Origin: a virus
Lineage: Duplodnaviria; Heunggongvirae; Uroviricota; Caudoviricetes
Length of the DNA stretch: 40,341 nucleotides
IMG/VR virus record: IMGVR_UViG_2619619135_000001
Span: 1 to 40,341 of that record
Strand: one strand, 5' to 3'
Shown here: one piece after another, positions 35,839 through 36,306 of the stretch
How positions within the stretch are numbered: position 1 is the first letter of the stretch
Layout: each line of letters starts with the position of its first letter
Notes under the pieces: model-generated
Seen by the model: only the letters and a program-made list of their open reading frames with translations
The model's database searches: none
Told to the model about the DNA's origin: nothing
Translations under genes and position numbers: made by a program

Positions 35839-36306
35839 TTCTTTTCCTTTTGCGTTGTTGGGGATAACCAGATTAACCGAATCCTTGTTGTTGGGGAATA
35901 ACAAGGTCCACCTCGCCTGATGTGGCTAAAAGCAGGCACATAACAGCTAAGTATTTTCAACCAGAGAGAATCCTTAGCGTTGTGGTGAATGCGGCTCAGC
36001 GCACGCGGGTTAAGGTTGAGGCTGACAGTCGACCTTCTGTGGATACCCACCCGTCTGGTGTGCAACCTTCGCCAGGCACCGGGAGGCACCCGGCACCACA
36101 ACTTTATGCTGTGTGTAGTCCTGGCTGTACCAGCTTGTACCCTTGCTTCCGGCTGGTACCGTCCTTTTTACAAAACAGAGAAGAGCATCACCGGACGACG
36201 GGCTCATAACCCAATCCATCCGGGCGGCTGCCACCGCAGGTGTTCTTCTCTGTTTTGTGGAGAAACCAACCGACCTTGCAGGGTCGATATGATGAGGAGC
36301 AGCAAA

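Follow-up and report, generated by a model that had tools for sequence, protein, structure and literature searches.

What is carried by the GC-rich stretch that precedes yfdP in the genome of a temperate member of the Caudoviricetes (IMG/VR record IMGVR_UViG_2619619135_000001, positions 1 to 40,341, hereafter the window)? Across 35900-36399 the GC content is 0.53-0.575, against 0.34-0.44 in the flanking genes, which start at 35838 on the minus strand and at 36307 (yfdP). A preliminary description of this locus had noticed the contrast in composition as well as the two gene starts, and had considered that the spacer was probably not protein-coding and could correspond to a structured RNA. The comparative data set out below bear out this view and place the element on the plus strand, and its identification as an RNA is robust. 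The idea of a single fold covering a 400-bp spacer is, on the other hand, not supported. The region is a string of separate modules, arranged 5′ to 3′ as a 5′ hairpin, a five-helix core, a single-stranded tail, an intrinsic terminator (T1), a three-way-junction hairpin (hp2) and a small hairpin located before the ribosome-binding site. Within the STnc100/PasD family of prophage RNAs, positions 35946-36169 represent a divergent member. Taken together, the modules probably form the structured 5′ leader RNA of the early-left operon, with a terminator-defined small RNA (sRNA) followed by hp2 on the read-through mRNA.

The five-helix junction core (35979-36102, plus strand) was delineated with the Rfam STnc100 model, with a covariance model of our own (R1) and from covariation. 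Helix P1 (35979-87 / 36094-102, GUUGUGGUG / CACCACAAC) closes the domain, within which are found P2 (35991-36006, GCGGC-UCAGC-GC-A-CGC), P3 (36007-09 / 36050-52), P4 (36054-60 / 36070-76) and P5 (36079-93, CCGGG-AGGCA-CCCGG). The spacer had initially been matched to no RNA family. At gathering thresholds, Rfam indeed returns nothing across the whole window. In a permissive scan, however, the full STnc100 model (RF02076) aligns with 35949-36171 of the plus strand at 34.8 bits (E-value 8.7e-6), the gathering score being 47 bits. The relatives found in ST64B, LLS, Kp4866-6, phiNP and the loci L080 and L012 likewise remain below that score. Model R1 was built from 41 copies retrieved by the 22-nucleotide P5/P1 motif CACCGGGAGGCACCCGGCACCA, every window-type copy being left out. 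This motif, located at 36077-36098 in the window, occurs exactly in at least 120 IMG/VR contigs belonging to 55 sequence clusters, and the ten classic copies in the four loci checked all pass the STnc100 threshold (68.6-131.9 bits). R1 recognizes 35976-36106 of the window at 67.8 bits (E-value 6e-17), as well as the corresponding positions of ST64B, of phiES15 and of four metagenomic phages, and scores about 30 bits with more remote leader types (LLS, Kp4866-6 and others). A search with the same model for a second copy in the window, for instance in the early-right operon, found none.

The resemblance to STnc100 concerns the architecture as much as the sequence. All five helices are retained in the window, including the closure UGGUG...CACCA with the P2 and P5 hairpins. 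P2 has kept its UNNGC loop and its bulged A, with three of its five pairs flipped, and P3 is GGG/CCC versus GCG/CGC in the classic copies. P5 of the LLS and Kp types reads GGUGG-AGGCA-CCACC, its loop being unaltered. Over 35 family members, whose alignment was fitted to the model and thus favours the structure, pairing is observed in 98.1% of the cells and double changes affect 16 of the 24 pairs; covariation reaches a score of 0.633, shuffles giving 0.165 and slid partners no more than 0.136. The comparative alignment does contain compensatory changes in the core helices. Furthermore, the segment that follows P2 is complementary to the P4 loop in nearly every copy, the paired sequences varying from one copy to another (AUCAGC/GCUGGU, CCAGUC/GACUGG, AGACUGACAAA/UUUGUCAGUCU), and a partner matches its cognate sequence better than a non-cognate one (p about 1e-11). 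In the window, this pseudoknot associates AAGGUUG (36012-18) with CAACCUU (36063-69). Hence, the core is a five-helix junction with a pseudoknot, a feature that the Rfam STnc100 model does not include. To these likenesses may be added the downstream intrinsic terminator and the occurrence in enterobacterial prophages. The differences from STnc100 are the score below gathering, the flipped P2 and P3 pairs, another 5′ region, a 3′ tail resembling RprA, and a position in the early-left leader after the repressor gene, the classic copies being found in late regions. These classic copies sometimes form head-to-tail arrays, in which two to four diverged copies succeed one another with a spacing of about 250-490 nucleotides (L010 2265-3380, L018 342-1038, L007 1121-1794), and tRNA genes are present within about 0.1-0.7 kb of them in L010, L004 and L018.

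Other identities can be set aside. ARAGORN and Rfam detected no tRNA or tmRNA gene in the window, no reverse transcriptase domain was found in the flanking proteins, and neither a tandem repeat family in 35800-36400 nor a toxin domain in the flanking proteins evokes a ToxI-like array; on these points the preliminary description was right. As for a protein-coding function, open reading frames (ORFs) overlap the element (35757-36101 on the minus strand, 35989-36669 on the plus strand, 36010-36234 on the minus strand) and are annotated in public records. The region would then encode a 226-residue, N-terminally extended YfdP (gp34 of phage SfIV), minus-strand proteins (SfIV gp35, phrog_3651) or the "frameshifted hypothetical protein" of PGAP annotations, and the minus-strand ORF 36010-36234 does match phrog_3651 with an E-value of 4e-48. 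However, the tblastn matches of four overlapping ORFs on both strands are fragmentary and change frame along the same DNA, unlike YfdP, which gives one full-length match in one frame. Whichever frame is considered, it is open in at most 27 of 56 cores; the spacing between conserved core blocks is evenly spread modulo 3, and the insertions and deletions are not multiples of three. The long ORF 35989-36669, already noted to translate into Arg/Cys-rich nonsense, is an N-terminal extension of yfdP without Pfam or PHROG match; no Pfam match was obtained for the overlapping ORFs either. Substitutions are compensatory for RNA helices, and YfdP of Escherichia coli K-12 starts at the equivalent of 36307 with an unrelated region upstream. 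Thus, the probability of a coding function is close to nil, and phrog_3651, SfIV gp34 and gp35 and the PGAP ORF are best explained as ORFs called over a conserved RNA.

Upstream of the core, the 5′ hairpin GCUAAG...CUUAGC (35946-35978, plus strand) was identified as an inverted repeat and in the minimum free energy fold. The corresponding hairpin of ST64B is GAUAAGAGUU...AACUCUUAUC, in which a compensatory change has turned C:G into A:U. Still further upstream, the conserved block CCACCTCGCCTGATGTGGCTAAAAGCAGGCAC (35908-35939, plus strand), which contains GCCUG...CAGGC, is always located 5′ of the element and may be part of the leader RNA or of a promoter region. It also precedes the element in phiES15, LLS, Kp4866-6 and a coreless variant, and BLAST matches to the block alone are found in Klebsiella and Hafnia phages.

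On its 3′ side, P1 is followed by a segment predicted to be mostly unpaired, UGCUGUGUGUAGUC (36107-36120, plus strand), which is identical over its 14 nucleotides to the 3′ part of the RprA sRNA of E. coli K-12 and might be a seed or an Hfq/RNase E module. It is nearly invariant in six phage leaders, the one substitution being in ST64B. In the latter phage, the identity with RprA extends back into the ACAAC of P1, and in phage LLS it covers 25 of 25 nucleotides and reaches into the terminator stem of RprA. Local-alignment z-scores against RprA are 6.4 for the window, 8.7 for ST64B, 12.2 for phiES15 and 19.8 for LLS. With the Rfam RprA model (RF00034), phiES15 obtains 41 bits, versus a gathering score of 70, and the window gives no match at E<=10. 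The resemblance is confined to the 3′ module, where the pre-terminator segment UUGCUGUGUGUAGUCUU is identical: RprA, a host Hfq-dependent sRNA, is devoid of the structured core of about 125 nucleotides found in the phage RNA, and no similarity to the 5′ half of RprA (its 5′ hairpin and the seed hairpin around nucleotide 31) rises above shuffles in the window. Between this 5′ half and P1/P2 of classic STnc100, a marginal signal (z-score 3.6, in one copy only) is not claimed as a relationship.

The tail leads to T1 (plus strand; stem 36123-34 / 36152-63 with core GUACCAGC/GCUGGUAC, U5 at 36165-69, -16.8 kcal/mol), which had escaped the terminator scan because of its 17-nucleotide loop. The inner hairpin of the preliminary description is in fact this terminator, its arms GTACCAGC/GCTGGTAC lying at 36127-36134 / 36152-36159, one base away from the positions first given. 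In ST64B, phiES15, LLS, phiNP and Kp4866-6, the sequence of the T1 stem is wholly replaced and the hairpin followed by CCUUUUU is retained. With few exceptions, the aligned representatives have a terminator after the core. By inspection, no conserved alternative pairing between P1 and T1, of the attenuator type, was found, and the window has no riboswitch match in either the gathering or the permissive Rfam scan.

Downstream of T1 lies hp2 (36169-36258, plus strand), a three-way junction. Two branches emerge from its basal stem of about 20 bp: branch A (36193-36223) is conserved, and branch B (GCGG-CUGCCA-CCGC, 36224-37) varies. The 13-bp inverted repeat initially reported is present, with its 13-mer shifted by one base (36172-36184 / 36244-36256), and is longer than first described: 15 bp are perfect (ACAAAACAGAGAAGA, 36170-36184 / TCTTCTCTGTTTTGT, 36244-36258) and the full arms (36170-36194 / 36234-36258) reach 25 nucleotides with 84% complementarity. 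When the region was shuffled 200 times, perfect inverted repeats never exceeded 12 bp and usually reached 7-8 bp. Rather than belonging to one overall structure, this repeat is the basal stem of the independent element hp2. RNAalifold applied to 22 diverse copies gives 31 pairs, 8 of which show compensatory changes; for one of the 31, 12 copies have C-G and 10 have G-C. The copies also contain numerous G-U pairs that can form only on the plus strand. These observations argue for an RNA structure on that strand. At least 120 IMG/VR contigs (34 clusters) contain the hp2 21-mer GACGGGCUCAUWACCCAAUCC, which is also found in 25 species genomes, nearly all Enterobacterales; the permissive Rfam scan gave no match to hp2. 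Outside Enterobacterales, the 21-mer appears in L324 (Chryseobacterium sp.), which also carries an R1 core match, and in L328 (Acidobacteriaceae metagenome-assembled genome), maybe because of contamination or mis-binning. phiES15 and L012 are without hp2, and L080 has an analogue of unrelated sequence and same architecture. An intrinsic terminator function of hp2 was rejected, since the U-run past the stem is not conserved in most variants, and a pairing of its loop with the yfdP Shine-Dalgarno sequence is, by inspection, not conserved in ST64B, LLS and phiNP.

Could these inverted repeats act at the level of DNA, as operators, cruciform, recombination site or origin? The repeats are indeed long, direct repeats TTGTTGGGGA(A)TAAC are found at 35855-35901, and hp2 folds about equally well on both strands: upon folding, 36160-36310 is far below shuffles on the plus strand (z-score -5.0) and on the minus strand (-4.1). 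Nevertheless, the frequent G-U pairs of hp2 and of the core exist only on the plus strand, the pseudoknot and the multi-branch junction covary, and members of the family are known transcripts. Moreover, the repressor operators are located elsewhere (34094-34167 and 34937-34971). A role as DNA thus appears highly improbable. As for the segment 35940-36172, its folding is more favourable on the plus strand (z-score -2.4 versus -1.1).

The tip of branch A, CGGGCUCAUAACCC (36199-36212, plus strand), consists of a stem of three G-C pairs topped by the loop CUCAUAA. These 14 nucleotides are also those of the anticodon stem-loop of the initiator tRNA-fMet, the sequence of which was verified in all 5426 E. 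coli genomes. It may be imagined that hp2, and possibly the whole leader, would be an anti-defence or translation decoy, the tip titrating a VapC-type tRNA-fMet nuclease, methionyl-tRNA synthetase or the 30S P site/IF3. Plasmids of Shigella and Salmonella carry vapBC modules, the toxin of which cleaves tRNA-fMet in the anticodon loop, and the identity includes the three G-C pairs that define an initiator, in an element that sits in an early-expressed leader. The 21-mer with the tip is also embedded in two otherwise different hairpins (L213 around 116-136, L233 around 10447-10467), so that the tip may be an independent functional unit. Several features make such a decoy very unlikely all the same. 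The loop is CUCAUUA, with U at position 37, in ST64B and Kp4866-6; the stem under the three G-C pairs is unlike that of a tRNA; the L080 analogue, with its similar architecture, has no tRNA-fMet-like tip; and the tip, although it occurs in every copy retrieved with the 21-mer, owes part of this apparent invariance to that mode of retrieval.

After hp2, a small hairpin with a UGCA(G) loop (36271-36286, plus strand) is predicted by folding just upstream of the ribosome-binding site. Most leaders bearing hp2 display the same succession of hp2, GUGGAGAAAC, a small UGCAG-loop hairpin and the ribosome-binding site of varied first genes. An equivalent small hairpin (for example GGCGGUGGCAGCCGCC) precedes different first genes in related leaders. 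In the window, the Shine-Dalgarno sequence GAGGAG (36294-99) is followed by the ATG of yfdP (36307-09, plus strand), first gene of the early-left operon.

The genomic setting gives further indications on the role of the element. The window phage is close to Shigella phage SfIV (98% identity across the query, BLAST). Locally, a cro-like gene on the minus strand comes first, then an S24/HTH repressor gene recognized by its domain (34187-34879, plus strand), a terminator of this gene found by the terminator scan (34899-34916, plus strand) and, directly after it, a PL-like promoter with operators (34937-34985, plus strand). The latter, absent from the list of the promoter scan, was read from consensus only, with TTGCAT as -35 (34957-62), a 17-bp spacer and TATCTT as -10 (34980-85). 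Operator candidates TTGC-N7-GCAA are located on both sides of the repressor gene, in the repressor-cro spacer (34094-34167) and at 34937-34971, where they overlap this rightward-reading promoter candidate. The operators of the cI-cro intergenic region and those of the PL-like promoter have TATCACGCAA in common, with the same half-sites, and Stx2a_WGPS2 has an identical promoter/operator layout (L126 2460-2515). The occurrence of these repeats together with a plausible promoter after the repressor gene designates the yfdP operon as the early-left operon, with the GC-rich element in its leader. Downstream of yfdP are found yfdQ (DUF2303), yfdR and further genes, with xis and int beyond according to the annotation of SfIV.

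In at least eight phage lineages, the core, the tail and T1 come after the repressor gene and ahead of the first early-left gene. This holds for the window, SfIV, ST64B, phiES15 (where the unit precedes kil and gam), phiNP, LLS, Stx2a_WGPS2 and L080. For Kp4866-6, the record of which is unannotated, the placement was deduced from the sequence alone. In Stx2a_WGPS2 the leader is uninterrupted from the PL-like promoter. About 160 nucleotides upstream of P1, L012 and L060 both display a clear promoter associated with a palindromic operator. In the window, the flanking genes are divergent, as had been described. This arrangement appears to result only from the insertion of a minus-strand moron gene; in related phages, the RNA belongs to an uninterrupted early-left leader downstream of the repressor-controlled promoter. 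The gene in question (35838->35404, minus strand) encodes 144 residues from its ATG and matches phrog_5286 over its full length. It overlaps by 29 bp a convergent 68-residue ORF with a strong ribosome-binding site (35226-35432, plus strand; phrog_1744). Both are located in the interval from PL to the RNA element; because related phages are without them, they have the look of inserted morons, a pair that the early-left transcript must cross antisense.

How would such a leader work? In the reading that we consider probable, drawn from the sequence comparisons, transcription would start at the repressor-controlled PL-like promoter, about 950 nucleotides upstream, or at a nearer promoter, and would stop at T1 to release an RNA of about 220-230 nucleotides. 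This RNA would act in trans as an Hfq-type base-pairing sRNA thanks to its RprA-like segment. T1 would also silence the genes from yfdP to xis-int unless the polymerase reads through, in which case the 5′ untranslated region of the resulting mRNA would begin with hp2. The proposal of an sRNA defined by T1 has several precedents. STnc100 and PasD are Hfq-associated prophage sRNAs validated by Northern blotting (bioRxiv 10.64898/2026.05.13.724894). LPR1/PreS of phage lambda ends at tL2a in the early-left operon and is expressed during the lytic cycle (bioRxiv 10.1101/2024.10.31.621285), and StxS is released at the tR′ terminator (PMC7547250). The 6S RNA of lambda, released at tR′, is a precedent of the same kind for the RNA that T1 would release. 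Like LPR1/PreS, 6S RNA and StxS, the window RNA would be defined by an intrinsic terminator in or at the head of a phage operon read through in lytic growth, with the GC-rich hairpin and U-tail typical of Hfq sRNAs. It differs from them by the absence of any sequence or structural similarity, by its greater length and by its conserved multi-helix domain. Identity with PasB, HnrS or StxS was rejected, since positions and sizes differ.

For hp2, the architecture suggests that the stem of about 20 bp would most likely be a site of RNase III processing, a stabilising structure or a device controlling translation of the first gene. In the N leader of phage lambda, a hairpin is processed by RNase III. 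Like that hairpin, hp2 offers a long, near-perfect stem, preceded by an RNA signal and followed by the ribosome-binding site that serves the first early-left gene. It differs from it by the lack of any sequence relation, by its three-way junction and by its tRNA-fMet-like tip.

Several considerations weigh against this overall reading. The score lies under the STnc100 gathering value, and the role of hp2 is deduced from its architecture. The promoter scan indicated no convincing sigma-70 promoter just upstream of the element. No target complementary to the RprA-like tail was found within the window, where the search gave only the self-match; RNAduplex pairing of the tail with the rpoS leader was no better than with shuffles, the duplexfold calculation on long sequences being unreliable. 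The elaboration and the conservation of the core, with its exact 22-nucleotide motif in 55 clusters, exceed the usual needs of a base-pairing sRNA, which points to the existence of some other partner. Among 79 loci with identical YfdP, T1 and hp2 are always present, and at least three or four unrelated cassettes are found between the same P1 strands, one locus being without core; the core cassettes look like a specificity determinant. Finally, the classic STnc100 copies are located in late regions, co-oriented in late operons, with esterase and holin genes downstream and Q-, stx- and methyltransferase-like genes upstream (the late-region Q, holin, esterase and methyltransferase genes having been named by eye from the sequence, without family search). 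About 30 of 103 classic copies with a downstream ORF of at least 100 residues have this ORF on the opposite strand, and some of these ORFs may be spurious.

In another possible reading, the core would act in cis on transcription. It would bind or modify the polymerase, by analogy with put of phage HK022, or bind a phage factor, by analogy with nut, so that T1 and later terminators are read through, the short RNA being a by-product. In this respect, the element is always found at the start of a long operon with a terminator immediately after it, both in the window and in at least eight further phages. LLS even has two terminators before the first gene. The co-oriented late-operon copies located after Q-like genes would fit the same scheme, and no N-like basic ORF was found before T1. 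Furthermore, the variable cassettes between identical P1 strands suggest allele-specific recognition, and the constraint on the core goes far beyond the needs of a scaffold. The put RNA, about 70 nucleotides with two stem-loops, is present in both early operons of HK022 (PMC9378689). Like it, the window element is a structured RNA in the leader just downstream of PL of a phage without N-like gene. However, the window carries a single copy, with none in the early-right operon, and of another architecture; there is no similarity to put, and HK022 has no match to Rfam STnc100 or R1, so that homology with put was rejected. A lambda-type nut/N system was likewise discarded, since the first ORF past the PL-like promoter encodes the 68-residue phrog_1744 protein, which is not basic, and no N-like ORF precedes T1 (boxA and boxB being judged by eye only). 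The terminator that follows the core in almost every aligned representative meets the need of an sRNA gene, not that of an antiterminator, family members are documented as discrete Hfq-bound sRNAs in lysogens, and some phages with the same operon, including the prophage CPS-53 of K-12, lack the core. On these grounds, we regard a cis action of the core as possible but rather unlikely.

It is tempting to go one step further and to imagine that the core, far from being a passive scaffold, represents a new class of cis-acting leader domain, placed at the heads of early-left and late operons and controlling, by binding the polymerase or a phage factor, passage through the terminator located after it. 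The cassettes would then be specificity alleles, RprA a minimised, domesticated descendant or a mimicry target of the 3′ module, and the hp2 tip a functional mimic of the anticodon arm of the initiator tRNA. As a whole, this picture is speculative and we hold it for doubtful.

The 471-bp region 35850-36320 has matches in 2860 of 5426 complete E. coli genomes, a count partly made of phages that have no more than the terminator, hp2 and the beginning of yfdP in common with it; in 1692 genomes, at least 80% of the region is present. K-12 itself is of little help. In CPS-53, homology with the window begins only at about 36285, on the yfdP start side, and the whole leader is missing. Because the yfdO-yfdP spacer is unrelated upstream of the yfdP ribosome-binding site, expression data from this prophage cannot be used here. 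The pawZ candidate was dismissed as an argW fragment at a prophage end, irrelevant to the present element.

The element is thus a sub-threshold variant of STnc100 that occupies a new genomic niche and is combined with two other modules, one resembling RprA and the other a hairpin domain not described before. It extends the STnc100/PasD family to a second niche, the immunity-proximal leader of the early-left operon, and brings to light a covarying pseudoknot and a five-way junction that are missing from the current Rfam model. Its recognition as an RNA corrects hypothetical or frameshifted ORF annotations in a region that appears to have seeded at least one spurious protein family. hp2 emerges as a widespread structured RNA of Enterobacterales prophages. 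As for the 3′ module, its identity with RprA links a core stress-response sRNA to phage leader RNAs, and it may be hypothesized that part of the RprA regulon is exploited by these prophages or originated from them.

Some observations in the vicinity of the element may be added. On the early-right side, Stx2a_WGPS2 (L126 268-456) and ST64B (L002 1409-1597) carry an adjacent C4 antisense RNA and isrK, both above the Rfam gathering scores; the window carries neither. Just upstream of the start of the orphan gene, the direct repeats TTGTTGGGGA(A)TAAC mentioned above occupy 35855-35868 and 35887-35901, the second one inside a small hairpin (35883-35906), and could be a regulator site for the minus-strand gene. 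Finally, the first 80 nucleotides or so past the PL-like promoter are conserved between the window (34990-35080) and Stx2a_WGPS2 (L126 2520-2600); they contain the hairpin CCAGACCAAC...AAAAUCUGGUUG, which is another candidate leader signal.

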